Part shown: piece by piece, positions 5,401 to 64,000 of the stretch
Numbering within the stretch: position 1 is the first letter of the stretch
How the letters are laid out: each line of letters opens with the position of its first letter
Assembly (NCBI GenBank): GCA_965645245.1
Contig: OZ287078.1
Span: forward strand, 1,984,001 to 2,048,000
Direction: 5' to 3'
Origin: Massalongia carnosa
Taxonomy: Eukaryota
DNA length: 64,000 nt
Program-made: the position numbers and the translations under genes
The notes under the pieces: generated by a model
Databases searched by the model: none
What the model was told of the DNA's origin: nothing
Seen by the model: only the letters and a program-made list of their open reading frames with translations

Positions 5401-5462
5401 TCCTCCTTGATAACTATATTTTCCTCGCGTAGCCTGATCCGTCGTTTAGTACCGAAACGCAC
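2409..5462 (-). pseudogene. Plavaka-type (CACTA/EnSpm-related) transposase with two in-frame stops and one intron
   Basis: Motifs HPPFADNLTYAP, SEMATGDWWW, LLLATDKT, AWPVYLTIGNL, DILHQLLKG, FNFPKWHVMTHY, FGSADG. Three ORFs share one frame, separated by single TAG codons (4794-96, 4161-63). A 60-nt GTGAGT..CTAAC..TAG intron lies at 4355-4414. Confidence 0.85.
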
Positions 5463-6022
5463 AGAGCAATGTTTTGATATGCTGCTCGAGTCCTCTGGAA
5501 GATTTTGTCCTTTTGCCGCAATAGCCGCAATCTCGATCCATATTGAAAGCTTGAGGAGTTTTCACTTTCCGCGACCCGTCAGAAATCAGATAAACGTAAA
5601 CAGATCCCCTGCATTAGCAAAACATGCTTGCTAACTGAATCACGTTAAATCCCGTTAAACTGTTAGCTACTCTGCAAGCCACCTTCGAAACCTTAAATAA
5701 TCAACTATCTGGGGTCGGTTACTCTGTAGTTAGCTTAACTGTAAGAATGCGGCTCTGTGATAACTCTGGTCGGCTCTGCGATATATTAAATGGTAGTTAA
5801 CGAAGAGTAATAATCTGTGAAATTGCCAGAAGAATATGTTCAGGAGCTAGTATAGGAATTTAATAATCTCAAACCAATAATCACTGCTGTAAAGTGATAA
5901 TTCTATCAATATTGCCCTTCCAATCTCTTAAGCTTAGGGTTATTTTAAAGAATATACATGTTTTTGTAAGAACAAGCAATAAAATACGATCTAACAATTT
6001 GTGAACTGCTAACAGAAACTAC

Positions 6023-15900: not shown

Positions 15901-17031
15901 GAACTCCCGAAGACCCTCGTTACCGGCACACCGCAACATGACGTTACCTATTCCTTTGGGAATTAATACTCCTCCAATACCTTGAATTGGAGGGCAATCG
16001 GATGTCTTGAATGAGGTGAAGATGGAGCGATCGTGGGTAATATGTTGGCTAGTTCCAGAGTCACAGATCCAGAGCTTAGATATTTTGGTTATATCTGCGG
16101 TGGCCATGTAGGCGCAGAAGGCTCCTTTGGTTGAGTCATTGTTTCCGGTTGGCTTTTGGCTTTGACCTTGACTTTTGGAATTCCTACGACGCTTATTGGA
16201 CTTACGCTGTGAGTCTTGGTTAACGAGGTGTGGATATTTTTCACGACACTCGCTCTCTACGTGATAGTCTTTTCGGCAGTGGTTGCAGAACTTGATGGTC
16301 TTGGTGATGATTCGAGAATGGGCTGTTCCGGGTTGAGCTCCTGCTTGGGTTTGAGCGTTTGAAACAGCTGCCATTGCGATTACGGCCTTATCGCTGGACT
16401 TGCTTGGGTTGGTCACCGTGTTTTGGAAATGCTGCATAGCCTGACTTAACGTGTGCTTGGGTTCACCCATTTCATTGAAAGGATCATGATCCTGAGCGTA
16501 TCGTTCGAAATAGCTGTTGTATTCGAAGCCTAAATTGGTATGGAAGCGATAGATAAGCCAGTTTTCGTCCAGGCTTAGCTTGCTTGAGAAGGTGCGAAGC
16601 TTATTCACCGTGGCGCGAAATTGGGTAACGTAGTCTGCAGGGCTGCTGCAATCCGATAGGATAAGGTTGTCTAATTTTCTAAAGGTGTCATTGAGGAATC
16701 CCGAACCGCGAGGCTTATAGTTTGACTCAAGCAGGTCCCAGGCGACGGAAGCAGTAGTATGGTCTTCTATATCGGTGTAGGCATTTCCTTCACAAGCTAA
16801 TCGTAGAGCAGTGCAGGCCTTATCTTGGCCCTTTTTCCATTTGTTGAAGCCATCATTGGGAGCGTTTGGGCGTGGTGCAGCTTCGGTGTTATCACAATAG
16901 ATCCAAAGATCTATCATTTTGAGGCAATCTCGCATGGCTCGCTTCCATGCTGGATAACCCTCGTGGTCCACTAGCTTAGGGATCCTATCAATAGCGCTAT
17001 AGGACCCCGATCCAGAGATTTTTTCACTCAT
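12907..17031 (-). CDS. Copia Gag-Pol polyprotein (Gag/CCHC, protease, GAG-pre-integrase, integrase, RT, RNase H), 1374 aa
   Basis: CNHCRKDYHVESEC knuckle, WICDSGTSQH, WHARLGH, LRSDCGGEY, QMDVKTAFL, YVDD, YTDADWAG and ADGLTKAL in copia order. Confidence 0.97.
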   Translation of the reverse strand: MSEKISGSGSYSAIDRIPKLVDHEGYPAWKRAMRDCLKMIDLWIYCDNTEAAPRPNAPNDGFNKWKKGQDKACTALRLACEGNAYTDIEDHTTASVAWDLLESNYKPRGSGFLNDTFRKLDNLILSDCSSPADYVTQFRATVNKLRTFSSKLSLDENWLIYRFHTNLGFEYNSYFERYAQDHDPFNEMGEPKHTLSQAMQHFQNTVTNPSKSSDKAVIAMAAVSNAQTQAGAQPGTAHSRIITKTIKFCNHCRKDYHVESECREKYPHLVNQDSQRKSNKRRRNSKSQGQSQKPTGNNDSTKGAFCAYMATADITKISKLWICDSGTSQHITHDRSIFTSFKTSDCPPIQGIGGVLIPKGIGNVMLRCAGNEGLREFPLFDVLYVPDGGLNLISQGQLQRDGCPLKIVPEGIEIGNYGIIARRQDNNLYILNMWNVSEAALALAAINSEAIKMWHARLGHLGNQNILKLAGMSKGMDLTKPPPQDACPPCAIAQSQVEPHRAPIQPGKHPLDLIHSDVQGPFPEALNGAKYMVTFLCDFDKRSHVTLLRVKSGVLQAFKNYKKQNEYGDKRIKRLRSDCGGEYDSKDFENFRNEHGIQWEPTVPGNPPMNGTAERLGQTLHKLASTMREGAKLDIKYWAEMVLTANYLRNRQPTAGRSITPYESHTGSPPELGHLRIIGQTGYAQNRKPSTGWKKFQERATKCTLVGYEGDHIYRMINPRGAVMRYSNVQWIDNNPPTPPSLSFSQTKRALHVGQSGPPTRKQKITHHTDSPHTDLVDAHESIESIPTGPLPSNAGKEALANQLPIEPWSQADILSKHPKLRAPSPDPLALLALLARANDPEPYEPKTYKQAVDSREEKDWRRAMQEEIDSINENDPWILTSLPPDRKALRGKWVYKIKRGPAGEILRYKARWVVRGFEQREGIDYNETFASVVKPMSYKAIFAIAAANDWEIHQMDVKTAFLYGRVDEEIYVEQPTGLDDGSTRVCKLKKALYGLKQSSRIWYETITTFFKSHEFVPVNADLSVFVKEGVIVAIYVDDLIITGSSSSEIQRVKKLLSDEFSMVDLGPINYYLGMTITRDRANRILRLGQQAYLEKVLRDHGMWDTNPVATPMDGRLEAAPEGHQATDDSRLRYQSAVGSLMYAMLGTRPDLAYAVSVVSRYASNPTDTHWKAVKRIFRYIKGTLPLQLTYKGYLQPLNGYTDADWAGDHHTRRSTSGFVFNVGSGAISWSSKRQPTVALSSCEAEYMGQTQATKEAVWLSSLLDQLSAPQVPGIHSLQTQSTSVALACLPTSFALNAIIIHCDNQGAIALAKNPQAHARSKHIDIQWHYQREKIEDKSVEFRYVPTEEQVADGLTKALPKDKFVVFRKALGLE

Positions 17032-17634
17032 GATGGAAAGGGTTTATTGGAAGAGCTTAATGGATTGTCCTTGTTAACGGACTGGCTTGAACTGGTGTTT
17101 GGTTTTACCGGATTCCGACGGAGTGCTATTATAAGTGCTTGGTGACTTGGTTCTGGCTCTTAGATCGAAAGGATCACAGTCGCTGGGCGGTTCTAGGTCC
17201 GATTTTGATGTGGACTGACCGGGAGTGACTGGAGGCTCAGGGATGATGGTACAAAGCAATCCAATTTTGATTGATCTGAGTTATCCTCTAAGAGAAAGCA
17301 ACGATTTCCGCACTAGCCGCCTGTAATGTATGTTGTGAATCCCGTTCAAGCCTTGTTGCCGGCCTATTATTTGGTTGAGGCTCTGAGAGTCATTGGATCT
17401 CGGCAAGAGTGCCACGTAGGAATGGGGCAGTGATTGATATAATAGATCTAAACGCAGAAGCAGATGCAGGTGCAAAGATAGATTTGAGGCGTTTAGTTGT
17501 GCCTTTGGGGTTGATAAATCGAGAGCGTTTTTTGTTGCTCGAAGCCATAATCCTGCAGTCTTATAACTGATACGCAGATGCTGACTATGAATAGAGGGCA
17601 AAATCGATTACAGGGAGATTTGGTTTCATCCCAA

Positions 17635-17959
17635 TGGATGTCACATTCCCGGTTTTTTGTTGGGAACGTAGATCATCCGAGACATCTGGATGTCACATTC
17701 CCGGTTTTTTGTTGGGAATGTAGATCATCCGAGACATCGAAGTGAATGTCACATTTCCGGTTTTTTATTGGAAATGTAGATCATCCGAGACACCTGGATG
17801 TCACATTTCCGATTTTTTGTTGGGAATGTAGATCATCCGAGACATCAAAGTGAAGTGGATGTCACATTCCCGGTTTTTTATTGGGAACGTAGATCATCCG
17901 AGACATCTGGATGTCACATTCCCGGTTTTTTGTGGGGAATGTAGATCATCCGAGACATC
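17635..17959. repeat. Six ~52-bp tandem units in the copia 5' leader
   Basis: TGGATGTCACATTCCCGGTTTTTTGTTGGGAATGTAGATCATCCGAGACATC x6, arranged as three pairs. Confidence 0.92.
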
Positions 17960-18780
17960 GAAACGAAGTGCAAGGAGGTGCCTGTTAAAATATTTGTTAG
18001 CGTTCGTTTAGTAAGGGGCAAAGAAGAAGCCGGGCGCCCGATAGTAGTGCTTAGCCATCTCAAACACTGCCGACTGTTTCATATGTGTCGATTTGTGTCG
18101 GATTTTTTTGTAGGAGATTATTCGCGACGGTAATTGTTTGCGACGGTAAGGAGGCTTGTGTTAGGGTAGGTAAAGTAAGACAAGCAAACACATGTAAAGA
18201 GGCGCCCTGCGGCCGGGCTCATAACCTATCAAAAGGTAGTATAGTAGATAGAGGATAGAACGCTTGCTGTTGTTCTATATAGTGGGAATAGCTAGATTTA
18301 TAGACAATGTACGGTATGCTAGTATTAGACTAGCGATACGTCTAGCCATTAGCGTGCGCCATACTCGTGCGGTAGAAGGTGAGTGCGGCTGAAATGAAGT
18401 AACCTGATTTGTACATTCTAACATGTGGATCTGAACAGAGCAGAATGGAGATGACGGGAAGTGGATTTTCCACAGTGGAAGTATTCTTTGGGTCTACGGG
18501 ATCCTACAACTTACAGGATTGGTATCTTACATGCGTAAGAGAGGGACAAGGATCTGACAAAGATTCTGATTAAATATCATCTCCCTCGTAACTGATGATC
18601 TACAAGATATATTTCTCCCTAGGAAATGAAAATTTGCAGCGTGGATCGGGGAAAGGGTTATGATCAATGGTTTCTATAAGGATTTTGTCACCAATAAGAA
18701 CAAGATTGAATTCGGGGGAATTTCTTGTCCGGGATTCGCAAACAGAAATGAGATTATTCAGCCAGTCTGCACGCAATGGA

Positions 18781-18928
18781 TGTTAGAATGTACAAATCAG
18801 GCTACTTCATTTCAGCCTCACTCACCGAGTATGGCGCACGCTAATGGCTAGACGTATCGCTAGTCTAATACTAGCATACCGTACATTGTCTATAAATCTA
18901 GCTATTCCCACTATATGGAACAAAAGCA
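18781..18928 (+). mobile_element. Partial copia LTR (same family as 12474-18423, opposite orientation)
   Basis: Starts TGTTAGAATGTACAAATCAGG; same deletion variant as the LTR at 39846-40035; 3' end missing. Confidence 0.85.
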
Positions 18929-19210: not shown

Positions 19211-20247
19211 TCAGGACCTAGTGACTGGATTGTGAGGTTCCGTGGGTAATGTTTGAAGGCGTTTTGAGGCGTTAAGAAGGTAAGTGGGGTGGGTTTGTAT
19301 GTAAAGCTTGTATGCGTCTGACTTCCATCTTCCTAGCATCTGAATCTCGTCTTCGGTGAGTCCTGCCCGTCGCGCTGTTGTTGCCGCACCTCTTCTGAAC
19401 GAGTGGCCAGAGAAATTTCCTATATAGCCCAAGTTCCTTAAGGTGGATTTCATCGCTGTTGTAATGTAGTCTCGAGTGAAGGACTGACCGTTTTTAAAGA
19501 GTGGTGCGGCCGGAGAACTTGGGAATCGCCTATATAAATTTGTAAGAGAAGCTAGTGCACAAGCAACATCGTTGGTAGCCGCAATTGTCAGTGTTATGCC
19601 TCGGCGAAAGGGATCGGTTTTGGAGACTGGTAGAGAGAGCTGTAGGTGATCTGCTTCGAACCTAATAGATTTTCTGGTGAGGTGCCATTGATCAAAGCTT
19701 GGGTCTAGTACATCTTGCGTTGTGTAAGTAAATTCTCCGGCTCGTAAGAAGCCTGCAAACGCTAAGCAGTACGCCGCATGTAAATTTGCGCCTTTCTCTT
19801 TCGTTTGATCAAGACGACTTAGCAATTTGATTAAGATCTCTCTAGTAATTGGTAACCTTTCACGTTTCTCGGCTTCACCGTTCTTTCGCTTTATGCCAGT
19901 AAGGATGCGATCTAACACCGGGTGATGAAATACGTCGAGATTACCGAGGCCCATATCTATCTGGCATGATCTTATGCCCGTCAAGTAGCTCTTAATAGTT
20001 TTTGGTTGCAGGCGTCGTTCACCCAACGCTGCGATCCACGAAGACAGCGTCCGGATGTTGGCTGGAAATGGTGGCGCGTTGAGGTTTACCCTACAGTAAA
20101 GAACGTATCCCTTTCTTGCCGTTGTGTATAAAGATCTTGTCTTAGTGGCCAGGCCCCACCAGAGGTATCGTGCTGCGATTTCGTCTAGAGGTACCTCACT
20201 GTACCAAGATGGGGGTGGATCGCGTCCTATATTGCTGAGGGTAGAGC
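19211..20247 (-). CDS. Tyrosine recombinase (probable second exon of a spliced GagN-YR protein)
   Basis: Catalytic motifs FLRAGEFT, SKTDPF, SGHSFRRG, GRWKS, AYKLY. The frame stays open upstream through RDPPPSWYSEVPLDEIAARYLWWGLATKTR with no ATG. Confidence 0.92.
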
Positions 20248-21843
20248 CTGAAACTGAGGGATTTTGTCAGCCAGTTTCTTCAAAAGTCCTCTAGACAAGA
20301 GATCAGCAATATAATTTTCTTTGGATGATATCCATCGCGCTTCTATCTGGATATCATGTAATGCAGCTAGCATTGTAATTGCCCGCAGGGCATGCATTGC
20401 TTGGCCTCGTATAGAGGTTTTATTCACTCCTTTCGTGACAGCGTAGCTATCACAATAGAGGATTAAATGACTACCCTTGCATATAGGTAGCCACTTTTTC
20501 ATAGCTTGAAGAATTGCTGTCATTTCTTTGACGTTGATATGCTTTGCCCTAAGGCGCGTAGTAAAGCGTGTGCTAAAAGCCTGCCGGGCTGCTTGTATAT
20601 TATGCAAATTTTGATCCTCGCTGAGGATAAAGCCGCCCATACCATATGAGCCGGACGCATCTGTCCATATTCTCATAGTATGTCTAGTACGGTTGAGCAG
20701 ATGTATGCCATTCCATTTAGGTAGGAAATGATGCCACCATAGAAGATCCGCCCTCATGTCCTTGTTAAGATGGATTAGTTTAGAGGTTACGCTTGCCGTA
20801 GCATTGAAAAGACGGCGTAGAAAGGCTCTTCCTGGTTTTACCACTCTGGCTGCAAAGCATAAGAATCCTAGAAGAGAGTCGAGTTCCTTCCTGGGTATGG
20901 CTTTTTTATTCAAAGCTGCCGATACTAGGGTCTTTGCTTTTAGTAACTTTTCGGAAGGCAAGCGTGCTTCCATGAGCGCGGTATCGATTTCAATGCCGAG
21001 GAAATCGCAAGTCGTTCCAGTTCTGTTCTTTTCGAGCTTGATTTTCATGCCAAGATCTTTACAAATGTTGTGGAAAACTTGATCAAACTTTTCAGCATCT
21101 GGTCCGGTGCTGACTATTATTAAAAAATCATCCAAGTAATGAATAGCGTCTTTCCAACCACAGTTGTACAATATCCAGTTGATACCCTTCGCGAACAGAT
21201 CAAAAAGGAACGGCGACGTTCTCAGCCCAAAGGGTAAGTATTTATCCATCCAAAAGGAATCCTGCCACTTGAAACCTAGTAACCACCAATCGCTTTTTGC
21301 TACTGGTATGTGGCGAAAAGCGTCCGCAAAGTCTCTTTTAATAAGAATACACCCTGGCCCGCGTTGCTCAATCAACCTAATGGCTTCGTCGAAGCTGGTA
21401 TATTCCAGGGAGCCCCAGTCTTCCGGTATGTGGTCGTTGACTGAGCTACTCTCCGGATACGATAGATGATGGATTCGCCGCCAACCACCGTTAGCCTTTG
21501 GTACAAGGCCTAATGGGGAACATATAAAGCAAGAAGGAATGTTGTTGACTTTCTCCAACCGATTACTAGCTATTTGTTCTTCGAGGTCATTGGTAAGAAC
21601 TTCCGGTGCCTCATTTGCAGAGGCAAGATTATCGCTAATAATGAGTTGATGTGGTCCTGTATAACCAACTTTGGCACCGTAGGTGATGATATCGATAATT
21701 GTTTGTGTGTAAGTGCGATCCGGGTGATTGGCCAAATGTTTCTCCCAGCCTTCTTTCTTCAATGGGCCCGGTGGGATCTTTGTTAGATTGTCCGTCAAGG
21801 TGTATGGAAAGGACTCCGCGATGGATAAGAATGGGGCGGTTAG
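20227..21843 (-). CDS. Reverse transcriptase-RNase H, in frame with gag after a single TGA
   Basis: CSPLGLVPK, WRRIHHLS, DFADAFRH, LPFGLRTSP, HYLDDF, FLGIEID, WTDAS, INVKEM, LYCDS, ADLLSR. Confidence 0.93.
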   Translation of the reverse strand, partial: LTAPFLSIAESFPYTLTDNLTKIPPGPLKKEGWEKHLANHPDRTYTQTIIDIITYGAKVGYTGPHQLIISDNLASANEAPEVLTNDLEEQIASNRLEKVNNIPSCFICSPLGLVPKANGGWRRIHHLSYPESSSVNDHIPEDWGSLEYTSFDEAIRLIEQRGPGCILIKRDFADAFRHIPVAKSDWWLLGFKWQDSFWMDKYLPFGLRTSPFLFDLFAKGINWILYNCGWKDAIHYLDDFLIIVSTGPDAEKFDQVFHNICKDLGMKIKLEKNRTGTTCDFLGIEIDTALMEARLPSEKLLKAKTLVSAALNKKAIPRKELDSLLGFLCFAARVVKPGRAFLRRLFNATASVTSKLIHLNKDMRADLLWWHHFLPKWNGIHLLNRTRHTMRIWTDASGSYGMGGFILSEDQNLHNIQAARQAFSTRFTTRLRAKHINVKEMTAILQAMKKWLPICKGSHLILYCDSYAVTKGVNKTSIRGQAMHALRAITMLAALHDIQIEARWISSKENYIADLLSRGLLKKLADKIPQFQALPSAI

Positions 21844-22998
21844 TCATTGCCTTGATGGGAGAGGCATCGAATTTGGGTTAGAGGGTTGATTTTTTCCATT
21901 TGTACAGTCCATCGCCCGATGTTGCTTTCCACATTTCTCACACACATGTTGGAATCTACAATATACGGGACAGTCTTTGCCATAGTTGTATTTCTTACAG
22001 ATAATCTTTTCGCCTGAGGTTTTGAAAGCCGTAGAATTATCGTCCGGTTTTGCAAAGTAAGCGGACGGTTTCCGCACAAGATGCCTTTCCAAGGAATGGT
22101 CCATTTCTTTCCATCCATCCGGGTTGTCAATCCCGCGAAAGGCTCGAGATTTGTGGAAATTCAAATGAAAGATGCGAACCGAGTCCCAGGTGTAGAAGGC
22201 GTATAATGATAGAAGATGGTCCTGATAAGCCATGAAGGCTCTCATCAGGTTTATCTGGAGACCGGGGTGTGCAAAGTGTAGTAGTATCATCCAATATACC
22301 CCGAGACATCGTATCAAATGAACTATCCCTTTGATATCTTTTAAGGAGCCATCTTCTTCTCTCGTGGCGATTTCCAGACCTTCTCCGAGTTTGACGTATC
22401 TAGAGTTGGTTTGAACTCCGTCGATGTCGGTACATAGCTTGGTAATGTTGATTGGGTCAAACGTATTCTCGGAGATTTGCTTTATCCATATGGGCTTGAT
22501 AGTGGGATATTCGTTCATAAGAGAAACAAAACGAGGATCCATACCTTCTGTATACAATGAGTTTGGTCGATGCGGTGGAAATGATGTCGGAAATAATAGG
22601 GAAGGCTGTTGAGCTGAGGCTACTGGCCCAGGGACCACGTCTCGGGCACGTGCTTGTTGGGTTTCGATATCCCGCCTAAGACTTACTCTTTCTCTTTCCT
22701 CGGCTTCCCTGCGGGACATTTCGCGTTGTGCTCTAAGTTCAATAATGTCATCAGGGGTGCGAGAACGGGTTTCCGGTATAACAGGCCCTTGTGAGGAGGA
22801 ATTAAACGCTGAAGATGGAAGAGGAGAAGGTTGAGGATGGCTTTGAAGGGTTGCCGTGCTGTCTTGTGAGTCGGGTACTTCGACGTCTGGGTTGGAGTTG
22901 GCTAGATTTGCCCTAGCTCTAGTTCTAGTACGGGCTAGAGTGCTGCCTTGTGTGCGGGAGGTAGGCTTGGTGATTCTGTTGGAGATGCGGGTGGCCAT
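21844..22998 (-). CDS. Gag-like protein with C-terminal Cys/His zinc fingers (384 aa from ATG 22998)
   Basis: MATRISNR...; CKKYNYGKDCPVYCRFQHVCEKCGKQHRAMDC; homologous to ORF1 of the copies at 29349 and ~60395. Confidence 0.85.
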   Translation of the reverse strand: MATRISNRITKPTSRTQGSTLARTRTRARANLANSNPDVEVPDSQDSTATLQSHPQPSPLPSSAFNSSSQGPVIPETRSRTPDDIIELRAQREMSRREAEERERVSLRRDIETQQARARDVVPGPVASAQQPSLLFPTSFPPHRPNSLYTEGMDPRFVSLMNEYPTIKPIWIKQISENTFDPINITKLCTDIDGVQTNSRYVKLGEGLEIATREEDGSLKDIKGIVHLIRCLGVYWMILLHFAHPGLQINLMRAFMAYQDHLLSLYAFYTWDSVRIFHLNFHKSRAFRGIDNPDGWKEMDHSLERHLVRKPSAYFAKPDDNSTAFKTSGEKIICKKYNYGKDCPVYCRFQHVCEKCGKQHRAMDCTNGKNQPSNPNSMPLPSRQ

Positions 22999-24164
22999 TT
23001 TTGGAGGAGAGGGATTTGAATAGAGTAAATTTAAGTGTAGTTGTTGTATAAATTTGAATTGGGTGAAAAGAAAACGTTGCAAACAGTGCTATCAAAATGC
23101 TATGCTTTTTGATTGTCTTGAGATGTGAGATGATGAGGGATACCGTCTGGGACCTCCTCTTTATATATCTTCTTCCTATTCTCCTTGTCCTACTCTACCA
23201 TCCCAGTATGCCCCATCAACGCGGCCCATAGCAAGGCATACACAAATCCGAAACCTAACTGTCGTCCGAAGGATCGATGCGGTGCTAAGATCTCTATGCC
23301 GTGCTGAGACATCCTTATGGTGCTGAGACATCTATGCCGTCCGAGAGATCCGTGCGGTGCCGAAATCAAAGCGGGAGCTGTCTCGATTAACGACGCACTA
23401 GCTCTCAGCATAGCCGAACTAGGCAATGATGCCGTTTCACATCTCTAGAATCTGGTTCTTCTGCTTGCTGTATACAGTCCTGACAATATCTTTAGCCCGG
23501 CTGGCGAATGATGGACAGTTTACCTTGAGGACCCCATCCGAAATGCACCTCATCACTGAATCGTACGTTATGCCAGTCAGACTTTTCAGGATATCTTTTC
23601 AACATAACTTTGGCCCAATCAAAGCGACGACGAGCTGTTTTCTCATTGACCCAGCCCTTTCTGCATGCGACGCATTTGTGATAGTCCATCGTTCCCATAG
23701 CTATTTGTATGATTCGTCCCGAGCACTCAAGTCCCACCTCATAGCCCAACTCTGCCCAGGTGAGAGCACGCGCCTCAAATCCCTCCTCCTCTATGATGCG
23801 CTCCATTCCGCAAATTTTTTGCGGAGTAACAATAGCCTTTCGCCCTCGCGTTTCAGGAAGATCAGGCTTATTGTGATGTCTTCGCGAGCTCTCCTGATTT
23901 AAAGCTCTCCAACCGGCATGATGACTCATATTAAACGTACGAAAAACGTCCTTTTTGAAGTAGAGAATGCCCATGCGATCGCAGAATTCAACGGCTCCTT
24001 GAATTTTAGCTTTTGTAGGAGTAGGATAGTGCATTCTAGATTCAGAAGAGTTAGGTTCAGGTGTGTTGGGTCGTTCCATGATGCTGGTTGTTGGTGAAAA
24101 GGGGGGATTTTTTGATGGGGTGAAATTTTTGGGTGTCGCTTTTTTTTTCTGCGAGCGCGAGGGC

Positions 24165-25394: not shown

Positions 25395-28300
25395 TATTTC
25401 GAACGATACGCTCAGGATCATGATCCTTTCAATGAAATGGGTGAACCCAGGCACACGTTAAGTCAGGCTATGCAGCATTTCCAAAACACGGTGACCAACC
25501 CAAGCAAGTCCAGCGATAAGGCCGTAATCGCAATGGCAGCTGTTTCAAACGCTCAAACCCAAGCAGGAGCTCAACCCGGAACAGCCCATTCTCGAATCAT
25601 CACCAAGACCATCAAGTACTGCAACCACTGCCAAAAGGACTATCACGTAGAGAGCGAGTATCGTGAAAAATATCCACACCTCGTTAACCAAGACTCACAG
25701 CGTAAGTCCAATAAGCGTCGCAGGAATTCCAAAAGTCAAGGTCAAAGTCAAAAGCCAACCAGAAACAATGACTCAACCAAAGGAGCCTTCTGCGCCTACA
25801 TGGCCACTGCGGATATAACCAAAATATCTAAGCTCTGGATCTGTGACTCTGGAACTAGCCAACATATTACCCACGATCGCTCCATCTTCACCTCATTCGA
25901 GACATCCGATTGCCCACCAATTCAAGGTATTGGAGGAGTATAATTCCCAAAGGAATAGGTAACGTCATGTTGCGGTGTGCCGGTAACGAGGGTCTTCGGG
26001 AGTTCCCTCTTTTCGATGTGTTATACGTTCCAGACGGACAACTACAACGAGATGGATGTCCCCTGAAGATCGTACCAGAGGGAATTGAAATCGGGAACTA
26101 TGGTATCACTGCTCGCCGCCAGGACAACAATCTGTATATCCTGAACATGTGGAACGTCTCTGAAGCCGCTCTCGCTCTCGCTGCAATTAATAGCGAGGCG
26201 ATAAAAATGTGGCACGCTCGTTTAGGCCATCTTGGAAATCAAAACATTCTCAAGCTCGCTGGCATGTCAAAAGGAATGGACCTCACCAAGCCCCCGCCCC
26301 AAGACGCCTGTCCTCCGTGCGCCATCGCTCAGTCCCAAGTAGAACCACACCGGGCCCCCATCCAACCAGGCAAGCACCCGCTGGACTTAAGTCACAGCGA
26401 TGTCCAAGGACCTTTCCCAGAAGCCTTGAATGGCGCCAAATATATGGTGACCTTTCTTTGCGATTTCGATAAACGGTCCCACGTCACCTTACTGCGCGTC
26501 AAAAGCGGAGTCCTTCAAGCCTTTAAAAACTACAAGAAGCAATATGAATATGGGGACAAACGAATTAAGCGCTTGCGATCGGACTGTGGGGGTGAGTATG
26601 ACTCCAAGGACTTCGAGAATTTCAGAAACGAGCATGGCATTCAGTGGGAACCTACCGTACCGGGAAATCCACCCATGAACGGGACAGCCGAGCGCCTAGG
26701 TCAAACGCTTCACAGGTTAGCCAGCACCATGCGAGAAGGCGCTAAAGTCGACATCAAATATTGGGCTGAAATGGTTCTCACTGCGAACTACCTAAGAAAT
26801 CGAAAACCAACTGCGGGACGCTCCATCACCTCCTACGAGTCTCACACCGGCAGCCCACCAGAACTAGGACATCTAAGGATAATAGGACAGACTGGCTATG
26901 CGCAAAATCGCAAGCCCTCCACCGGATGGAAGAAATTTCAGGAACGAGCCACCAAATGTACTTTAGTAGGATACGAAGGCAATCACATCTATCGAATGAT
27001 AAATCCACGGGGCGCGGTCATGCGTTATTCCAATGTTCAGTGGATAGATAACAATCCCCCAACTCCTCCTTCCTTATCATTCTCTCAAACTAAAAGAGCC
27101 CTACATGTTAGATAGTCAGGACCGCCCACAAGAAAGCAAAAAATCACCCATCATACGGACATCCCTCATACGGACTTAGTCGACGCTCATGAATCCATAG
27201 AATCAATTCCCACTAGACCTCTCCCATCAAACGCTAGACAAGAGGCATTGGCAAACCAACGGCCCATTGAGCCTCGGTTCCAGGCAGATATTCTCTCTAA
27301 GCACCCAAAACTTCGTGCCCCCTCGCCTAACCCGCTAGCTCTTTTGGCTCTTCTTGCTCGAGCCAATGACCCGGAGCCATACGAGCCTAAAACCTATAAA
27401 CAGGCCGTAGATAGTCGGGAGGAAAAGGATTGGCGAAGGGCAATGTAGGAAGAAATTGACTCTATCAACGAAAATGATTCCTGGATCCTCACCTCCCTGC
27501 CCCCGGATCGCAAAGCCCTGCCAGGCAAATGGGTTTAAAAAATCAAACGAGGCCCGGCTGGCGAGATTCTTCGTTACAAGGCTCGATGGGTAGTCAGAGG
27601 CTTTGAGCAACGTGAAGGCATTGACTACAATGAGAATTTTGCTTCAGTAGTGAAGCCAATGAGCTATAAAGCCATCTTCGCTATCGCTGCAGCCAATGAT
27701 TGGGAAATTCACCAAATGGACGTAAAAACAGCCTTCTTGTACGGAAGAATGGACGAGGAAATCTACGTGGAGCAACCAACCGGTCTGGATGACGGGTCAA
27801 CGAGAGTTTGCAAGTTGAAGAAAGCTCTTTATGGCCTGAAACAGTCGTCTAGAATCTGGTATGAAACGATCACTACTTTTTTCAAGTCTCATGAATTCGT
27901 TCCAGTCAACGCCGACCTTAGCGTTTTCGTTAAAGAAGATGTTATCGTAGCCATTTACGTCGATGATTTAATCATCACTGGCTCTTCTTCTTCCGAGATA
28001 CAACGTGTCAAGAAACTGCTGAACGACGAGTTCTCGATGGTTGATTTAGGCCCTATCAATTACTACATGGGCATGACGATAACTCGGGATCGGGCTAATA
28101 GGATTCTTCGCATTGGTCAGCAGGCCTATCTGGAAAAAGTACTACGCGACCATGGCATGTGGGACACTAACCCCATGGCTACCCCGATAGATGGGCGACT
28201 GGAGGCTGCACCAGAGGGCCATCAGGCCACAGATGACTCTCGCCTCCGCTACCAATCAGTGGTGGGCTCTCTCATGTATGCTATGCTAGGCACCAGGCCT

Positions 28301-28977
28301 GACTTAGCCTACGCCGTATCGGTGGTCAGCCGCTATGCCTCGAACCCGACCGACACGCACTGGAAGGCAGTCAAACGCATCTTTCGATATATCAAGGGCA
28401 CTCTTCCGTTGCAGTTAACATACAAAGGTCACTTACAACCCTTGAACGGTTACACTGACGCGGATTGGGCCGAAGATCATCATACCCGAAGGTCTACCTC
28501 TGGCTTCGTGTTTAATGTGGGTAGTGGCGCTATTAACTGGTCTTCCAAACGACAACCGACCGTAGCCCTATCTTCATGCGAAGCCGAGTACATGGGTCAG
28601 ACTCAAGCCACCAAGGAAGCCGTCTGGTTGTCTAGTCTTCTCGACCAACTTTCAGCACCTCAAGTCCCTGGGAATCACTCTCTCCAAACCCAGAGCACCT
28701 CTGTAGCCCTTGCCTGCTTGCCTACATCTTTCGCCCTAAATGCTATCATCATTCACTGCGACAATCAAGGAGCAATGGCTTTGGCCAAAAATCCCCAGGC
28801 ACACGCGTGGAGCAAGCATATTGACATCCAATGGCACTACCAAAGAGAGAAGATCGAAGACAAATCAGTGGAATTTCGCTATGTTGCTACCGAAGAGCAG
28901 GTAGCTGACGGCCTAACCAAGGCCCTACCAAAGGACAAATTTGTTGACTTTCGAAAGGCTTTAGGCTTAGAGTAAAA

Positions 28978-31900
28978 GTAATTCGGCTAAGGCGAAAGGT
29001 AATGCCGGGACCGAGTGGAGGCAGGCCGCGAAACAGCCGACGAAGGCTGAAGGCCGTGGATAGCCGAAGGACCGAGTGGAGGCAGGCCGCGAACAGCCAA
29101 CGAAGGCCGAAGGACAAAGGAGGATGATGTCCAAAATAGTTGGACAAGCAAGGGAGAGAAAGGGCATAAATAGGTGGCCTTTTGGCAATCTTCTCCTCAT
29201 CATCACCATTGATTCGGAGTTCAGCACCAAAAGGTCTTTTGAAAGTCTTTCCCGAATTAAAAACATCTGTCAATCACCCACCCTCAACCCCATCATTCTA
29301 AATCACCTCCATTTCTCATCCTATATTACCTCCCACACTGAGCCCATCATGCCTTCCCATCGCCCTCAAAGAATCACCAAGCCTTCCGCCCGCTCCGGAA
29401 ACACCTCCGGGCCTGGTCAACGTCTCACTCGTTCCACCCGACCCCCTAGGGGAGGGGCCATAGTTCCAGAAACAAAGCCTCCTCCGAACACCCAAGGTTC
29501 GGAAGGAACACTTCGGGGCGATGTGATAGACGTCCACCGAACACCGGAACCAACCCCGGACCTGCTGTTGGACCTCAGGGCTCAGCAGGAGGCCACGGCG
29601 ACAGCCCTCAGGCAGGAGGAGACCCGTCACCTTCAAAAAAAAATTACCGACAACTTGGCGGCCATTCAACGTATAAGGGAGGGAAACACAGTCCCCGAGT
29701 ATAGGCATGAGGTACACACTCCCCACCCGAACCAGCTACTACCCGCTGAAACTGAAGGTACGCATCTATGTCTCCTTCCTCTAATTATCGAGTACCCCGC
29801 CATAAACAGCATTTATTTCCGACGAATTCTGAGCAACAAATTCGACCCCATAAATATTTCCAAGCTCTGCACCGATGTAGTCTTGATCAAACCAACTGTC
29901 AAACGAGTGAACCTGGCCAAAGGATACGAATTAATACAGGAAGAAGACGACGCGTCACCAGGAGACATCAAGGGACTACCCCACCTGATTCGCTGCCTCA
30001 TGGTGTATTGGCAGGTCTTGCTTCATTTGGCACTATCTCGAATAAAAGACAGTCTTTGTAGTGCCTTTCAAATCTATCAGGACCGCTTGTTGTTACATTA
30101 CACCATCTACACCAGGGAGTCAGTACGGGTGTTTCATATAATCTTTCACAGGGGTCGAGTGTACCAGGGGTGAACGACCCGGCCGGATGGAGGAGAATCG
30201 ACACCACCATCGAAAACATGTACCTTACTCGACGGACACCTAACTTGTCCATGACGGGAGGTACCACCAAACAGTACCCGGGATCAATCCCGATAGGCGG
30301 CTCCACTGAATCAAAGCCCATGTCCTGCAATCGATACAACGCAGGGCGGGAATACAAGGACTGCAGGTACCTTCACGTCTGCAGTCTCTGTTTCGGCCAT
30401 CACACGAAAAAAAACTGCCCTAAGGCACATATCAGCAACCCAAATTTCATGTCAACGGGTAGACGAGATTGACTAGCCGGCCCATTTGATCATATCGCCG
30501 AATGGTTCCCCTATCCGCTGATAGATAAATCAGTAATCGTACCCTCAGGGCCTCTAAGAAAAGAAGGCTGGGAACTTCACGTCATGGGTCATCCGGACAA
30601 AACTTAAAAACAGACCATTCACGATATAACCGTGTACGGGGCCAAAATTGGTTACACCGGCCCAGATCAGTTCATTCTAAGCAACAACCTGGCCTCGGCC
30701 AACGTGGCCCCAGAAAATCTGACCATGGACGTAGAGGACCAGAGGGCCAAGAACCGATTGATCGAGGTACCCACCCTACCAGCCAGATATATGTGCTCCC
30801 CCTTAGGCCTGGTCCCCAAACCAAACGGAGGATGGCGCGGTATTCATCACCTCTCCTACCCCGAGGGTAATTCGGTGAACGACTTCATTCCCGAAGAATG
30901 GGGCGCTCTGGTGTTGAGAATTGAGCCGAGATGTCTGCTTATTAATAAGAGCACTAACCGAATGCGGATCAAGCACTAAGGGTTATTTCGGCCGTGGCAA
31001 CACATCACTAATCATTCGAGATGTCATCCATCTGCCAGCTAAGGGAGGCAAAACGGAATATATTGTTAGATGGTGAGGCTACCATTGGTTAGATGGTCAG
31101 GCTACCATCAATATAGGCATCCATCGTGAGTCACACGGGTGTCTACCAGGCACCTATGGAGGTGCCTAACAGGCAGCTATAGGAAGCCTACAGCATTACT
31201 GCTGTGTGACTGCTATAAAAGCAGGTAGATAGCCCACATAGATAATAACCCTCAATGAAATGTATGCTTCTTATTTGCCCTACTTCCGTTTCATGATCAA
31301 TAGCCTGGTGTTTCAACATCTGGAATATATCACTTTCGACGAAGCCCTCGCCGGTGTCAGAAGATTGGGCAAAGACTGCGTACTGATCAAACGAGATCTA
31401 GCCGATGCCTTTCGCCACGTTCCCGTGGCGCAAAGCGATTGGTGGTTGTTGGGTTTTTGTTGAAACGGGGTTTACTGGATGGAACGCTTTCTTCCATTCG
31501 GCCTCAGGACGTCTCCCTTCTTGTTTGAATTATTCGCGAAAGGTCTGAACTGGATGATGATTAATAAAACAAATGGCGAAGTTATTCACTACCTGGACGA
31601 TTTTCTCGGAATCGTTCGCGCTATTCCCGATGCGGCATCCTTTGATCGGAACTTTGCAGAAATTTGTCAGCCTAAAAATCAACGAAAAGAAAAATAAACA
31701 AGGCACGGTAGTCGAATTCCTGGGCATCGAGCTGGACACACACCTCATGCAGGCACGACTACCGGCCGAAAAGCTTCAGAAAGCTAAGGATGTCGTCCAA
31801 ACAACATTGAATAAATCCACTATAACCAGAAACGAGCTAGACACTCTGCTGGGATTTCTGTGCTTTGCAGCCAAAGTGGTGGTGCCGGGAAGAACCTTTC

Positions 31901-33694
31901 TCCGACGCCTTTTCAACTGCAAAATTGGGCCCGCGCGCCCATTTATTCATATCAATTCTCACATAAAAGCTGATCTTTTATGGTGGCATCATTTCCTTCC
32001 ATTATGGAACGGCATACACATTATTAGCCCTTCGAGACCCTTGCTCCGTCTCTGGACGGATGCCAGTGGGGACTTCGGAATCGGGGCATACATACTTCAA
32101 GGTGGTCAAACCACACACACATTGCCCGCTGAGCAAGTGGTTTCTGAACGTTATACCACCAGGCTCAGAGCCAAACATATCAATGAGAAGGAGATGACAG
32201 CAATTCTGCACGCCATACGGCGGTGGCTCCCCATGTGCAAGGGAGCTCATCTTCTTCTTTATTGCGACAGCTTTGCTGTAATGTCCGGGGTCAAAAAGAC
32301 CTCCATTCGGGGCGGGGCCATGCATCCCCTCCGGAATATCGCCATGATGGCGGCAATATATGACATTGAGATTGAACCACACTGGCTGTCTACCAAAGAA
32401 AATTTCTTAGCAGATTAGTTGTCCCGAGAACTATTTGGAAAAATCGCTGACAATTACCCCAACCTGCAGGGCATTTCATCGAACAAATAACGGCGTCACT
32501 CGCCCGCGACCCCAGAGACTTGGTATAACGAGGTTCCGCTGGATCGCCGAGCAGCCAGATGTTTATGGTGGGGCATAGCAATTAGGACTCGAGGGCTATA
32601 CGATGCAGCTCGGAAAAGCTACACGACTCACTGTCAATTAGCAACCAATTTCCCTCCCTTTCCAGCGTCAATTCGAAGTCTTTCGGCATGGATAGCCGCC
32701 CTGGGTCAGCGAGGGCTCTGCCCGAAAACCATCAAAAACTATTTAGCTGGAGTACGATCGAGCCATTTGGACATGGGCCTAGGGGACCTGGAGGTCTTTC
32801 ACCATCCAGTCCTAGACAGAATAATAGCGGGAATAAAACGAATGCACGGTGAACCAGAAAGACGAGAAAGGCTACCAATCACACGCAACGTTTTGATAAA
32901 ATTGCTACGGAAACTATACAATACCAACGAAGTCCAGGCAACACTTCATGCAGCATACAGCATCGCATTTGCCGCCTTCTTAAGAGCGGGAGAATTTACC
33001 TACAAACAGGGAGAAATGCAAGACTCCAGCTTCGATTCATGGCATTTAACTAGGAAATCGGTGGATCTACAAGCGGATCGAATAATTCTTTCCCTACCAT
33101 CATCCAAGACGGACCCTTTTCGAAGGGGTAGAAAAATTTATATCGCAGCAACAAACGACGAAGCATGCTCGATCACCTCCATTCGGAACTTGTTTACCCG
33201 ATTACCGAAACCAGCATCGTCCCCATTGTTCCAAGTTCAGGACAAGGCCTTCACTCGTGAATATTTAGTGCAGGCCCTACGGAGTGGCCTCCGGGCAATT
33301 GGCGTCCGAGGGAATTACTCGGGTCATTCGTTTCGACGGGGTGCAGCAACAACGGCTAAGAACTCGGGCTTGCTAGAGGAAGATATTCAGACCTTGGGCC
33401 GATGGAAATCAGACTCGTATCAATTGTACATTCAAACACACCCGGACCAATTAATAGCGACCTCCCTTCGTTTTCAACGACCCCCCGCCACGTTCCGAAC
33501 AGCACCACCGTAGGTGGGCCATTCCCTGCTTGGGGTTGGGAGTTTTTTCCCCTCACTGCTGCCAAAACAAAGCCATATAGGAGGGGCCTTCAGCAAAACT
33601 GAGCGCCAGCAGGGCAGCAGCGAGGGGAGAGTTGCTCAAACATAGATAGAAATTATGTATATGTTCAGCTGACACGATGGAGCCCGCGAATTAC
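28978..33694 (+). mobile_element. Complete but decayed YR retrotransposon, family B
   Basis: Gag from ATG 29349, RT-RH ~30473-32490, YR to 33513; termini GTAATTCG...CGAATTAC; inserted between copia TAAA and CCAGAAG. Confidence 0.92.
30912..31318 (+). mobile_element. Solo LTR (407 bp) inside the YR element RT
   Basis: TGTTGA...TCAACA termini; TSD TCTGG; RT frame WGAL|EYITFD rejoins. Confidence 0.92.
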
Positions 33695-57300: not shown

Positions 57301-57569
57301 GACGATGGACGGAGGCCGAAGAGCTGGAGGTGCAAGTGATGGAGACGAGTGTGAGGGTGCTAGGGGCGGAGCATCCAGACACGCTGACTAGCATGAATAA
57401 CCTTGCACTCACGTGGAAGTCTCAAGGCCGCAATGATGAGGCTCACTCACTGCTAAAGGAATGTTGTCAGCTACGAAAACACAAGCTGGGTCCTCAACAT
57501 CCTCATACGAAGTCTTCGCTTAAGTATCTCAATGAGTGGCAGATGGAGAGTTTATCATTGAAGTCTTAA
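54337..57569 (+). CDS. Fungal NLR: short N-terminal candidate amyloid motif, NB-ARC, TPR (4 exons, ~1022 aa)
   Basis: Exons 54337-54445, 54496-54528, 54595-54745 and 54794-57569 in frame (intron 2 GC-AG); VPFRRDPDFVDR, P-loop GLGGVGKS, WALVLDNAD, ILITSR, MPLAIVQAAAYI, MHGLVQ; ~10 TPR units. Confidence 0.92.
56163..57422 (+). repeat. Ten near-identical 126-bp TPR-coding repeats
   Basis: QGRWTEAEELxVQVMETxxRVLGAEHPxTLTxMANLASTYxN, 42-aa period. Confidence 0.95.
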
Positions 57570-60104: not shown

Positions 60105-63100
60105 GTAATTCGGCTCGGGCGAAAGGTAATGCCGGGACCGAGTGGAGGCAGGCCGCGGATAGCCGACGAAGGCCGAAGGTTGGATGTTGGACGGGAAGGG
60201 GAGAAAAAAGCATAAATAGGTGGCCTTTTGGCACTCTTCTCCTCATCATTACCATTGATTCGGAGTTCAGCACCAAAAGGTCTTTTGAAAGCCTTTCCCG
60301 AATTAAAAACATCTATCAATTACTCACCCCCAATCGCATCATTCCAAATCACCTTCACCTCTCATTCTATATTACCCTCCACACTGAGCCCATCATGCCT
60401 TTCCATCGCCCTCAAAGAACCATCAAGCCCTTCATCCACTTCGAAAACACCTCCAGGCCCGGTCAACGTTTCACTCGTTCCACCCGATCCCCTAGAAGAG
60501 GGGTCATAGTTTCAGAAACACAGCCTCCTTCGAACACTCAAGGTTCGGAGGGAACACTTCGGGACGATGTGGTAGACGTTCATCGAACATCGGAATCAAT
60601 CCCGGATCTGCTGTTGGATCTCCGGGCTCAGCAGGAGGCCACGGCGACAGTCCTCAGGCAGGAGGAGACCCGTCACCTTCAAAAAACAAATTGCCGACAA
60701 CTTGGCAGCCATTCAGCGCATAAGGGAGGGAAACACAGTCCCCGACGGAGACATCAAGGGACTACCCCACCTGATTCGCTGCCTCGGGGTGTATTGGCAG
60801 GTCTTGCTTCATTTGGCATCATCCGGAATAAAAGACAGTCTTTGTAGGGCCGTTCAAATCTATCAGGACCGCTTGTTGTTACATTACACCACCTACACCT
60901 GAGAGTCAGTAGGAATGTTTCATATAATCTTTCCACAGGGGTCGAGTGTACCAGGGAGTGAACGATCCGGCCGGATGGAGGAGAATCGACACCATCATCG
61001 AAAACATGTATCTTACTCGACGGACACCTAACCTGTTCATGACGGGAGGTATCACCAAACAGCGTCCGGATCACTCCCGGTAGGCGGCTCCACTGAATCA
61101 AAGCCCATGTCCTGCAATAGATACAACGCAGGGCGGGAATACAAGGACTGCAGGTATCCTCACGTCTGCAATCTCTGTTTCGGCCATCACACGAAAAACA
61201 ACTTCCTCAAGGCACATATTAGCAACCCAAATTTCATGTCAACGGGTAGACGAGATTGACTAGCCGGCACATTTTATCATGTCGCCGAAGGGTTCCCCTA
61301 TCCGCTGATAGATAAATCAGCAATCGTACTTTCAGGGCCTCTAAGAAAAGAAGGCTGGGAACTTCACCTCATGGGTCATCCGAAAAAAAAAATTACAAAC
61401 AGACCATTTACGATATAATCATGTACGGGGCCAAAATTGATTACACCGGCCCAGATCAGTTCATTCTAAGCAACAACCTGGCCTCGGCCAACGCGGCCCC
61501 AGAAATGCTGACCATGGACGTAGAGGACCAGAGGGCCAGGAACCGATTGATCGAGGTACCCACCCTACCAGCCAGATATATATGCTCCCCCTTATGCCTG
61601 ATCCTCAAAGTACACGGAGGATGGCGCCGTATTCATCACCTCTCCCATCCCGAGGGTAATTCGGTGAACGACTTCATTCCCGAAGAATGGGGCGCTCTGG
61701 AATATTTTCTTTCGACGAAGCCCTCGCCGGCGTCAGAAGAATGGGCAAGGACTGCCTACTGATCAAACGAGATCCAGCCGATGCCTTTCGCCACGTTCCA
61801 GTGGCGCAAAGCGATTGGTGGTTGCTGAGTTTTTGTTGAAACGGGGTTTACTGGATGGAACGCTTTCTTCCATTCGGCCTCAGGAGGTCTCCCTTCTTGT
61901 TTGACATATTCGCGAAAGGCCTGAACTGGATGATGATTAATTGTTCAGACCTCGGCCTAAAATCAACGATAAGAAAAATAAACAAGGCACGGTAGTCGAA
62001 TTCCTGGGCATCGAGCTGGATACACACCTCATGCAGGCACGACTACCGGCCGAAAAGCTTCAGAAAGCTAAGGATCTTGTCCAAACAACATTGAATAAAT
62101 CCACGATAACCAGAAACAAGCTAGACACTCTTGCTGGGATTTGTGGGCTTTGCAGCCAAAATGGTGGTGCCGGAAATAACTTTTCTCCGACGCCTTTTCA
62201 ACTGCAAAATCGGGCCCGCGCGCCCATTAATGAGTAACAATTCTCACATAAAAGCTGATCTTTTATGGTGGCATCATTTCCTTCCATTATGGAACGGCAT
62301 ACACATTATTAGCCCTTCGAGACCCCTGCTCCGTCTCTGGACGGATGCCAGTGGGGACTTCGTGATCGGGGCATAAATATTTCAAGGTGGTCAGACCACA
62401 CACATTGCCCGCTGAGCAAGTGGTTTCTGAACGTTATACCACCCCTTTGCAGCCAAAGTAGTGGTGCCCGAGAGAACCTTTCTTCGGCGCCTTTTCAACT
62501 GCAAAATCGGGCCCGCGCGCCCATTTATTCATGTCGATTCCCACATAAAAGCTGATCTTTTATGGTGGCATCACTTCCTTCCATTATGGAACGGCATACG
62601 CATCATCAGCCCTTCGAGGCCCCTGCTCCGTCTCTGGACGGATGCCAGCGGGGACTTCGGAATCAGGGCATACATACTCTTAGGTGGTCAGACCACACAC
62701 ACACTGCCCGCTGAGCAAGTAATATCTGAACGATACACGACTAGGCTCAGAGCCAAACATATCAATGAGAAGGAGATGACAGCGATCCTGCACGCCATAC
62801 GGCGGTGGCTCCCCCTGTGCAAGAGAGCCCATCTTCTTCTCTATTGCGACAGCTTCGCTGTAATGTCCGGGGTCAAAAAGACCTCCATGCGAGGAGGGGC
62901 CATGCACCCTCTTCGGAATATCGCCATGATGGCGGCTGTAAATGACATTGAAATCGAGCCACACTGGCTGTCGACCAAAGAAAACTTCTTAGCAGATTGG
63001 TTGTCCCCAGTATTATTTGGGAAAATCGCTGACAATTACCCCAAACTGCAGGGCATTTCATCAGACAAATAACGGCGACACACGCCCGCGACCCTCCAGA

Positions 63101-64000
63101 AACATGGTACAATGAGGTCCCGCTGGATCGTCGGGCAGCCAGATATCTATGGTGGGGCATAGCAATTAGGACTCGAGGACTATACGATGCAGCCCGAAAA
63201 AGCTACACGACCCACTGTCAGCTGGCGACGAATTTTTCCCCTTTCCAGCAACAATTCGAAGTCTTTCGGCGTGGATAGCCGCTCTAGGCCAACGGGGACT
63301 CCGTCCCAAAACTATCAAAAACTATCTAGCTGGGGTGCGATCAAGTCAATTGGACATGGGCCTAGGGGACCTGGAGGTTTCCATCAGCCAGTCCTAGACA
63401 GGATAATAGCAGGAATAAAACGGATGCACGGTGAACCCGAAAAACGAGAAAGACTACCAATCACACGCGACGTTCTGATAAAATTGCTACGAAAATTAGA
63501 CACTATTAACGAGGTCCAAGCAACACTCCATGCGGCATATAGCATCGCATTCGCTGCCTTCTTAAGAGCGGGAGAATTTACTTAAAAACAAGGAGACATG
63601 CAAGACCCCAGCTTCGATTCATGAATTTAACCAGGAAATCCGTGGACCTACGAGAAGATCGAATGATTCTCCCCTTACCATCATCGAAAACGGACCCTTT
63701 TCGAAGAGGTAGAAAAATTTACATCGCAGCAACAAACGACGAAGCATGCTCGGTCGCCTCCACCCGGAACTTGTTTACCCGGTTCCCGAAATCAGCATCG
63801 TCCCCGCTGCTCCAGGTTCAAAACAAGGCCTTCACCCGGGATTATTTGATGCAGGCTCTGCAAAACAGTCTCCGGGCGATTGGAGTTCGAGGTAATTACT
63901 CGGGTCATTCGTTTCGACGTGGGGAAGCAACAACGGCCAAGGACTTGGGCTTGCTGGAAGAAGACATTTAAACCTTGGGCCGATGGAAATCGGACTCGTA
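60105..64000 (+). mobile_element. Second decayed family-B YR retrotransposon, running off the window end
   Basis: Starts GTAATTCGGCT; colinear with 28978-33694; deletions in gag and RT; ~300-bp duplication in RNase H; YR with stops. Confidence 0.92.

Follow-up and report, generated by a model that had tools for sequence, protein, structure and literature searches.

We analysed a stretch of 64,000 nucleotides (nt) from Massalongia carnosa (assembly GCA_965645245.1, contig OZ287078.1, positions 1,984,001 to 2,048,000; hereafter the window) and within it the junction between gag and pol of a retrotransposon that we term family A. Family A comprises three minus-strand open reading frames (ORFs) in the order gag, reverse transcriptase (RT)-RNase H (pol) and tyrosine recombinase (YR) (Table 1) and, lacking a methyltransferase, is a fungal Ngaro-like retrotransposon. 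Its gag and pol lie in one frame and are separated by a single TGA followed by CTA. Programmed readthrough of this UGA, which would join Gag and Pol in one protein, is the best-supported explanation of the junction, and we consider it probable from the comparison of sequences across related elements.

The gag ORF of family A has no match in a Pfam scan, and resembles the gag ORFs of related loci by tblastn. The 538-residue pol product matches only RT and RNase H families in Pfam, with the RT at pol residues 153-286 (PF00078, E 2.9e-14) and RNase H at residues 388-476 (PF17917, E 1.4e-07). The recombinase ORF has no early ATG and a weak PF00589 match (E 4.6e-4, 20.4 bits against a curated cut-off of 27.1), with the HxxR and Tyr region visible in its translation. 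Since this ORF overlaps the end of pol, there is no room for an extra domain between RNase H and YR, and the Pfam scan identified no methyltransferase, protease or DDE integrase domain in the element. No matching split direct repeats of the Ngaro-defining type (A1 ... B1 A2 B2) were found around family A or around the first copy of a second family, family B; the window holds one intact copy.

Read on the minus strand, the family A junction is ..AGG CAA TGA CTA ACC GCC.., and the stop-to-stop frames on either side, 23088..21844 (414 amino acids) and 21843..20227 (538 amino acids), are contiguous in a single frame without overlap. Translation through the stop from the ATG at 22998 gives 923 residues, in agreement with the length given in the original prediction, which had been made from the letters of this DNA alone; the stop is the X at residue 386 of the corresponding sequence P0002, which carries one additional leading residue. 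The same prediction had placed the first in-frame ATG of pol deep inside the RT, and this Met is indeed pol residue 199, behind SPLGLVPK (pol residue 109) and the KRDFADAFRHIP block (pol residue 169). Contigs of three coded runs with three organism labels (X1, X2 and X5) cover the junction with 0 differences, indicating that the TGA is not a private assembly error, with the proviso that one of the runs may be the source sample. Across window positions 20100-22500 the word depth in run X2 (814 million letters of unknown kind) is about 21,000, which could reflect either a very high copy number or RNA, between which contigs cannot distinguish.

Table 1. Positions of the family A and family B features in the window, and of the splice-like gag ends of related loci (in coordinates of those loci). 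A slash marks the donor-like boundary.
Feature	Location	Strand	Remarks
Family A gag ORF	21847..22998	-	384 codons, starting at the frame's sole ATG (22998) and ending with the last sense codon, CAA
Family A CCHC-type zinc knuckle, C-x2-C-x3-H-x4-C	21904..21942	-	regular-expression match; 19 residues before the gag stop
Family A in-frame TGA between gag and pol, proposed leaky stop	21846..21844	-	identical in contigs of X1, X2 and X5
Family A CTA, first post-stop codon	21843..21841	-	preceding codon CAA; TGA and CTA together form the UGA-CUA readthrough context
Family A pol ORF	20230..21843	-	538 codons; same frame as gag
Family A pol-terminating TAG	20227..20229	-	frame reading
Family A tyrosine recombinase ORF	19214..20266	-	351 codons; -1 frame relative to pol; 40-nt overlap with pol
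Family B copy 1, remains of gag, pol and YR	29349..33486	+	tblastn with family A proteins
Family B copy 1 junction TGA CTA	30470..30475	+	context GAT TGA CTA GCC; copy degraded, pol matches in three frames
Family B copy 2, remains of gag C-terminus, pol and part of YR	60750..63998	+	tblastn with family A proteins
Family B copy 2 junction TGA CTA	61257..61262	+	context GAT TGA CTA GCC; copy degraded, runs off the window end
Splice-like sister group	L020 1911-1954; L027 1297-1338; L044 3858-3900; L033 611-680		
C/GTTAG gag-end clade			L030, L036, L040, L043, L052, L053, L067, L068, L069, L072, L074, L076, L078

The original prediction of TGA CTA at the family A junction and at both family B junctions, with pol continuing in the gag frame, was confirmed in every detail. 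CTA is thus the first codon after the stop in both families, and family B carries the extended form of the signal, UGA CUA G; the short-context class of readthrough signals has C at +4 and U at +5, and an A at +6 adds to the stimulation. The Pol of family B is 61% identical to that of family A, and the family A product aligns by tblastn through the stop in one frame in both family B copies (query residues 281-556 at 30140..30949, and 222-432 at 60750..61397). When the three window copies were aligned with the two nearest metagenome relatives, conservation was found before the stop in the zinc knuckle, SNPN(S/F)M and GR(R/K), and after it in L(T/A)(A/G)PF..IAE.FPY.L; in the clade of the window families, the invariant E, F, P, Y and L of ..I(A/S)E.FPY.L begin 2 to 20 codons past the stop. 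The protein similarity first noticed immediately downstream of the stop is therefore borne out, and it runs on both sides of it.

We identified relatives by a scan of metagenome contigs with alignment of Pol, which yielded 79 loci at 36-55% identity. Together with the three window copies these make up 82 elements, in 59 lineages at 80% Pol identity. For each locus the Pol frame was walked upstream to its first stop, and the sequence preceding that stop was then classed. A zinc-knuckle gag, one stop and then the Pol frame were found in 41 elements from 31 lineages (5 of the 41 with a variant or degraded knuckle), the gag ORF of this class ending 3-39 residues past the knuckle. The knuckle lay in another frame in 15 elements (10 lineages), in the same frame with 2-6 intervening stops in 8 elements (6 lineages), and was not found in 11 elements (6 lineages), three lineages of this last class (L012, L021 and L034) having gag in another frame by tblastn with a gag panel; in the remaining 7 elements (6 lineages) the frame runs off the contig. 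In 47 lineages a zinc knuckle was located, and gag and pol share one frame in 37 of these, where chance would give one third (binomial p 2e-10). Among the 53 lineages whose frame does not run off the contig, none has an uninterrupted gag-pol ORF. In a FastTree phylogeny of Pol, the window families are sisters, adjoining L001 and L008/L009, and each of the four major Pol clades includes elements with the single-stop layout, the CRYQH clade via one row only (L067).

A further scan, of viral contigs, found no relative. A scan of genome contigs gave 10 loci (L080-L089; 26-36% identity) from records that carry the label of bacterial metagenome-assembled genomes and are probably eukaryotic DNA binned with bacteria; a knuckle was found in 5 of the 10, approximately 380-850 nt upstream of pol, and none has the single-stop layout. 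The junction region, used as the query of a word-indexed protein search, returned 153 matches, of which 120 are listed, and among the matches listed the relatives in protein databases are mostly gene calls of Pol alone. Three distant relatives among them, P0019 (1365 amino acids), P0081 and P0114, have no stop between a zinc-knuckle region and Pol, and may be either true single ORFs or intron-containing gene models.

For the counts of stop-codon contexts, each lineage contributed one representative. Among the 31 lineages with a single stop, the gag stops are 23 TGA, 5 TAG and 3 TAA. TGA-C is found in 21 lineages and TGA-CT in 18, compared with TGA-CT at 1 of 39 YR terminal stops (Fisher p 1.3e-7) and at 3 of 55 pol terminal stops from the same loci (Fisher p 9.8e-8), and a C at position +4 follows 26 of the 31 gag stops against 14 of 39 YR and 23 of 55 pol terminal stops. 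The first post-stop codon is CTA in 13 lineages, CTC in 6, CTT in 1, CAA and GGA in 3 each, CAT in 2, and CCC, ATA and ATT in 1 each. CTA accounts for 1.3% of all codons in these ORFs (p 5e-17 for 13 of 31). All 20 post-stop Leu codons are CTN, and CTA provides 13 of the 20 compared with 13% of Leu codons (p 1e-7). By these counts, the skew towards TGA-CT(A) at the gag stop is non-random, and it recurs in separate deep clades. The alignment of the junction across homologues, which had been proposed as a check on the original prediction, consequently favours readthrough, with one in-frame stop in 31 of 59 lineages and this skew in its context.

Other clades carry alternative contexts. TAG CAA is found in L028, L048, L073 and L079, and TAA CAA in L056, while TAG or TGA followed by GGA CCT is found in the L002 group and in L070/L071; within one 80% cluster, one stop has been exchanged for another (L048 TAG, L056 TAA, L073 TAG). 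TAG/TAA-CAA and TAG/TGA-GGA are recognised leaky contexts in the plant-virus and murine leukaemia virus (MLV) literature. In yeast, adenines at the positions just before the stop favour readthrough, and across the 41 single-stop loci the preceding codon is AAA in 10, CAA in 4 and AAG in 4.

Between the stop and the conserved Pol N-terminus lie 0 to 175 codons, over which the frame remains open. Outside the clade of the window families, this stretch consists of 10 to 175 poorly conserved, always open codons. Gap runs in it are multiples of three in 27 of 32 cases (p 4e-9), and L054 is involved in every one of the five non-triplet runs. This count covers 9 of 22 pairs, those aligning at 60% identity or above; in the other 13 the alignments are unreliable and contain many odd-length runs. 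In close pairs the last 50 gag codons show a clear third-position excess of substitutions (121/130/206, p 6e-7), and directly past the stop such an excess is seen in L010, L013 and L018, the sole group with clear coding constraint there. We read the post-stop linker as a translated, loosely constrained spacer.

No RNA structure was found downstream of the stop. The family A junction folds no better than shuffled sequences (z +1.11), and no structure was found in the 90 nt downstream of the stop over the 31 lineages (mean z +0.25). No Rfam family matched near the junction; the one match recorded, c4-a1b1 at 19.4 bits against 46.7, lies far from it and was set aside as a sub-threshold chance match. 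Readthrough of the MLV type, with UAG and a 3' pseudoknot, was rejected as a model given that no downstream structure is predicted, as was production of Gag-Pol by ribosomal frameshifting, gag and pol lying in one frame without overlap.

We accordingly propose the following route, in which each step is conditional. A single full-length RNA would be translated from the gag AUG, and most ribosomes would terminate at the UGA at 21846..21844, releasing a 384-residue Gag with a C-terminal zinc knuckle. A minority would decode the UGA by a near-cognate tRNA and continue in frame, giving a 923-residue Gag-RT-RNase H fusion, because, as we suggest, the context (CAA UGA CUA in family A and GAU UGA CUA G in family B) terminates poorly. 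The signal would then be the short linear context itself and not a downstream RNA structure, and would set the excess of Gag over Pol. Actual ribosomal readthrough, its rate and the residue inserted are what we infer from this arrangement. Comparative support for readthrough is unusually clean.

Several known systems offer points of comparison. In MLV one in-frame stop separates gag and pol, and a minority of ribosomes make the fusion, which sets the Gag:Pol ratio; the signal there is UAG with a downstream pseudoknot. The single in-frame gag/pol stop is common to MLV and family A, but family A uses UGA, has no predicted structure, and possesses neither protease nor DDE integrase domains. Leaky stops are also known from viruses in the forms UAG-CAA-UUA (tobamovirus) and UGA-C (alphavirus). 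Stops resembling the tobamovirus signal occur among the relatives of family A (TAG CAA TTA in L079, TAG CAA CCA in L028), in retrotransposons here whereas the known cases are RNA viruses. The UGA C of Sindbis virus is mentioned in passages of PMC4207609.

The characterisation of UGA-CUA as a leaky context, on which the original prediction relied, holds in the work on metabolic enzymes of fungi and animals (Ustilago maydis Tpi1, human LDHB and MDH1), in which the signal is identical, UGA CUA (passages of PMC4207609). As described in these passages, CUA after UGA is sufficient for readthrough in U. maydis, whereas UAG or UAA in place of UGA lowered it; the first two bases downstream of the stop matter most, and the motif works in HeLa cells as well (PMC4207609). 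The same passages report that the signal works in this basidiomycete without downstream structure, as none is predicted for family A. There, however, readthrough adds a short peroxisomal tag to a host enzyme (PMC4207609), whereas here it would add the putative 538-residue polymerase of a mobile element.

Ngaro elements of fungi (Muszewska et al. 2013), animals and protists have been described as containing gag, RT-RNase H and YR, in this order and without a methyltransferase, the YR sometimes being frame-shifted relative to RT-RNase H (passages of PMC3783388 and PMC13465315). The translation of Pol is not addressed in these passages, and the split direct repeats of such elements were not found around the window copies. 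The passages available from PMC3783388, PMC8547959, PMC6681497, PMC3266345, PMC9210276 and PMC13465315 contain no mention of readthrough, and none was found for Ngaro, DIRS, PAT or VIPER elements in a full-text search that had the founding Ngaro texts (Goodwin and Poulter 2004; Poulter and Butler 2015) outside its scope.

Several observations weigh against readthrough as a general account of these elements. The single-stop layout is not universal, being replaced in the lineages classed above by a knuckle in another frame (10), by several stops (6) or by no detectable knuckle (6). The Fisher and binomial p-values overstate independence, since the lineages share ancestry. In close pairs, the first 60 post-stop codons show no overall third-position excess (125/120/121), implying weak constraint on the linker or, for some lineages, that it is non-coding. 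Among the 31 lineages with a single stop, L033 and L067 may be of a splice type, as the stop in their clades overlaps a motif resembling a splice donor. Seven database relatives have a Met exactly at the first post-stop position (P0014, P0016, P0021, P0032, P0034, P0037 and P0038, among the matches listed), opening with MPSSL or MPASL and continuing with ..FPYPL; this may represent an independent start of Pol or the choice of a Met by a gene caller, and their DNA is not among the 79 metagenome loci. Finally, in the Ty1/copia long terminal repeat (LTR) element Tca2 of Candida albicans, gag and pol occupy one frame with a UGA between them and a putative pseudoknot, and yet the junction gave no readthrough in a Saccharomyces cerevisiae reporter, in which what looked like readthrough was due to a cryptic promoter (abstract of PMC2194720). 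An in-frame UGA alone is therefore not proof of readthrough.

The last two of these points bear on the strongest alternative, which we nonetheless regard as unlikely: that Pol is made independently of Gag, from a cryptic promoter or subgenomic RNA, by internal ribosome entry, from a non-AUG start after the stop or by termination-reinitiation, the in-frame layout being incidental. The promoter at the Tca2 junction mimicked readthrough in just this manner (PMC2194720), and the weak codon-position constraint just past the stop in most pairs would likewise agree with a separate origin of Pol. Nevertheless, if Pol were made independently, gag and pol would not have to be in frame or to be divided by just one stop, and yet the two are in frame in 37 of 47 lineages and a single stop is found in 31; nor would the TGA-CT(A) context be predicted, and family A offers no AUG before pol residue 199. 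The Tca2 study itself concluded that Pol is made from the gag-pol RNA, for which bypass of the stop is needed (PMC2194720, abstract). Tca2 differs from the Ngaro-like family A, which has no DDE integrase, in being an LTR element with an integrase.

A short stop-containing intron, whose removal would give Gag-Pol while unspliced RNA would give Gag, is considerably less plausible for the junction, although related clades have features of this kind. In L020, L027 and L044, gag ends with AG/GTAACT or AG/GTAGCT, the stop (TAA or TAG) lying inside a motif resembling a 5' splice site, and the gag-to-pol frame is restored, despite differing offsets, by an acceptor that is homologous among the three and lies 43, 41 and 42 nt downstream, respectively. 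In a larger clade the end of gag is CGT TAG (C/GTTAG), and it is followed by a stop-bearing spacer of 95 to approximately 340 nt with a frame offset that varies from locus to locus. Each locus has acceptors that would restore the frame, and seven of the loci tested carry an AAGCT motif in the spacer; in 5 of these 7 the first AG after AAGCT restores the frame. From their sequences, these sister groups look like cases of a retained intron choosing between Gag and Gag-Pol. Variable context and a splice event supplying Pol, either of which the original prediction would have counted against itself, thus have counterparts in other clades, and not in the clade of the window families.

Family A itself has no plausible intron at its junction. 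The GT nearest to the family A stop on its upstream side is 59 nt from the TGA, and all in-frame GT..AG intervals across the stop are at least 132 nt long, each costing at least 33 gag codons or at least 30 pol codons and so deleting the zinc knuckle or the conserved Pol N-terminus. Family B does have a GTAGAC 11 nt before its stop; however, the shortest in-frame candidate common to both copies (66 nt) would remove the invariant E.FPY.L block. The linkers of the TGA-CT clades take indels in triplets (27 of 32), which is not required of introns. No joint across the junction was found in contigs of runs X1, X2, X5 and X6, a weak negative given that these contigs are of unknown kind. Two odd joints inside pol, 20553>20705 and 20739>20963, occur in one contig each of X1 and X2 and were taken to be chimeric or divergent copies, their ends being non-canonical on either strand.

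Still less credible is a reading of the TGA as a sequencing error or as a nonsense mutation that has disabled dead copies. The two copies of family B are indeed degraded and the region is a transposon graveyard, but family A is otherwise intact over 414 + 538 + 351 codons, the stop recurs at the same site in family B and in 29 further lineages, its context is non-random, and three runs give the same letters. Decoding of UGA as a standard residue, through selenocysteine or codon reassignment, can be practically discounted, the sole point in its favour being the use of UGA by 23 of 31 lineages, against which other lineages have TAG or TAA at the same site, the Copia (1378 amino acids) and NLR-like (939 amino acids) ORFs of the window have no in-frame TGA, reading TGA as sense lengthens no other long window ORF cleanly, no Rfam match occurs near the junction, and fungi lack selenocysteine machinery (passages of PMC4207609).

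The proposed route does not account for the expression of the recombinase. Where both ORFs were found in a locus, that of the recombinase nearly always lies in the -1 frame with respect to pol. A CCCAAAT lies within the 22-nt pol-YR overlap of the L002 group, and no canonical slippery heptamer was found in the 40-nt overlap of family A. The suggestion in the original prediction that family A departs from the overlapping-frame layout usual for DIRS and Ngaro elements was consequently only half right: it holds for gag and pol, which share one frame, and fails for pol and YR, which overlap in different frames.

The surrounding fungal region is rich in transposons. By a Pfam scan, its long ORFs include a Plavaka transposase (2409-5561), an intact (12907-17043) and a degraded (25859-28975) Copia polyprotein, an RVT_1 element (36801-38018), a DDE_Tnp_4 transposase (46475-47866) and an NB-ARC/TPR_10 NLR-like ORF (54750-57569). 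The Plavaka-type ORF, on the minus strand, is cut by two TAG codons into three contiguous pieces in the same frame, amounting to 1050 codons if the TAGs are read through, which is probably decay. Just 3' of the family A recombinase ORF lies a 664-bp unit (18265-18928) with 160-nt inverted arms, adjoined by a tandem array of approximately 108-nt units (17635-17967). A piece of a third Ngaro-like element, containing the RNase H end and the YR start, is found on the plus strand at 44217-45016.

Across the wider family, we tentatively advance the possibility that the Ngaro-like gag-pol junction is an evolutionary switch-point at which devices setting Gag:Gag-Pol are interchangeable: one of the classic leaky contexts UGA-CUN, UAG/UAA-CAA and UAG/UGA-GGA-CCU, or a gag stop within the 5' splice site of a retained intron, with a separate second event for the -1-frame recombinase in most lineages. 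The expression of Pol in tyrosine-recombinase retrotransposons has not been worked out in the literature searched. If the junction is such a switch-point, these elements would form a natural collection of signals for recoding and splicing in fungi, and would be the first among tyrosine-recombinase retrotransposons to have their translational strategy defined.

Stop-codon readthrough is already known from retroviruses, from some LTR elements and from host genes. What is new here is its proposed host, a tyrosine-recombinase retrotransposon, which extends the scope of the mechanism and not its principle. If family A and its relatives do use readthrough, then a six-letter signal validated in a basidiomycete would yield their excess of Gag over Pol, and annotation pipelines that record a 'gag' followed by a start-less 'pol', as for the relatives in protein databases, would mis-model what is one translational unit. 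The lineages with differing stop contexts would, in turn, provide natural variants for the efficiency of readthrough in fungi.

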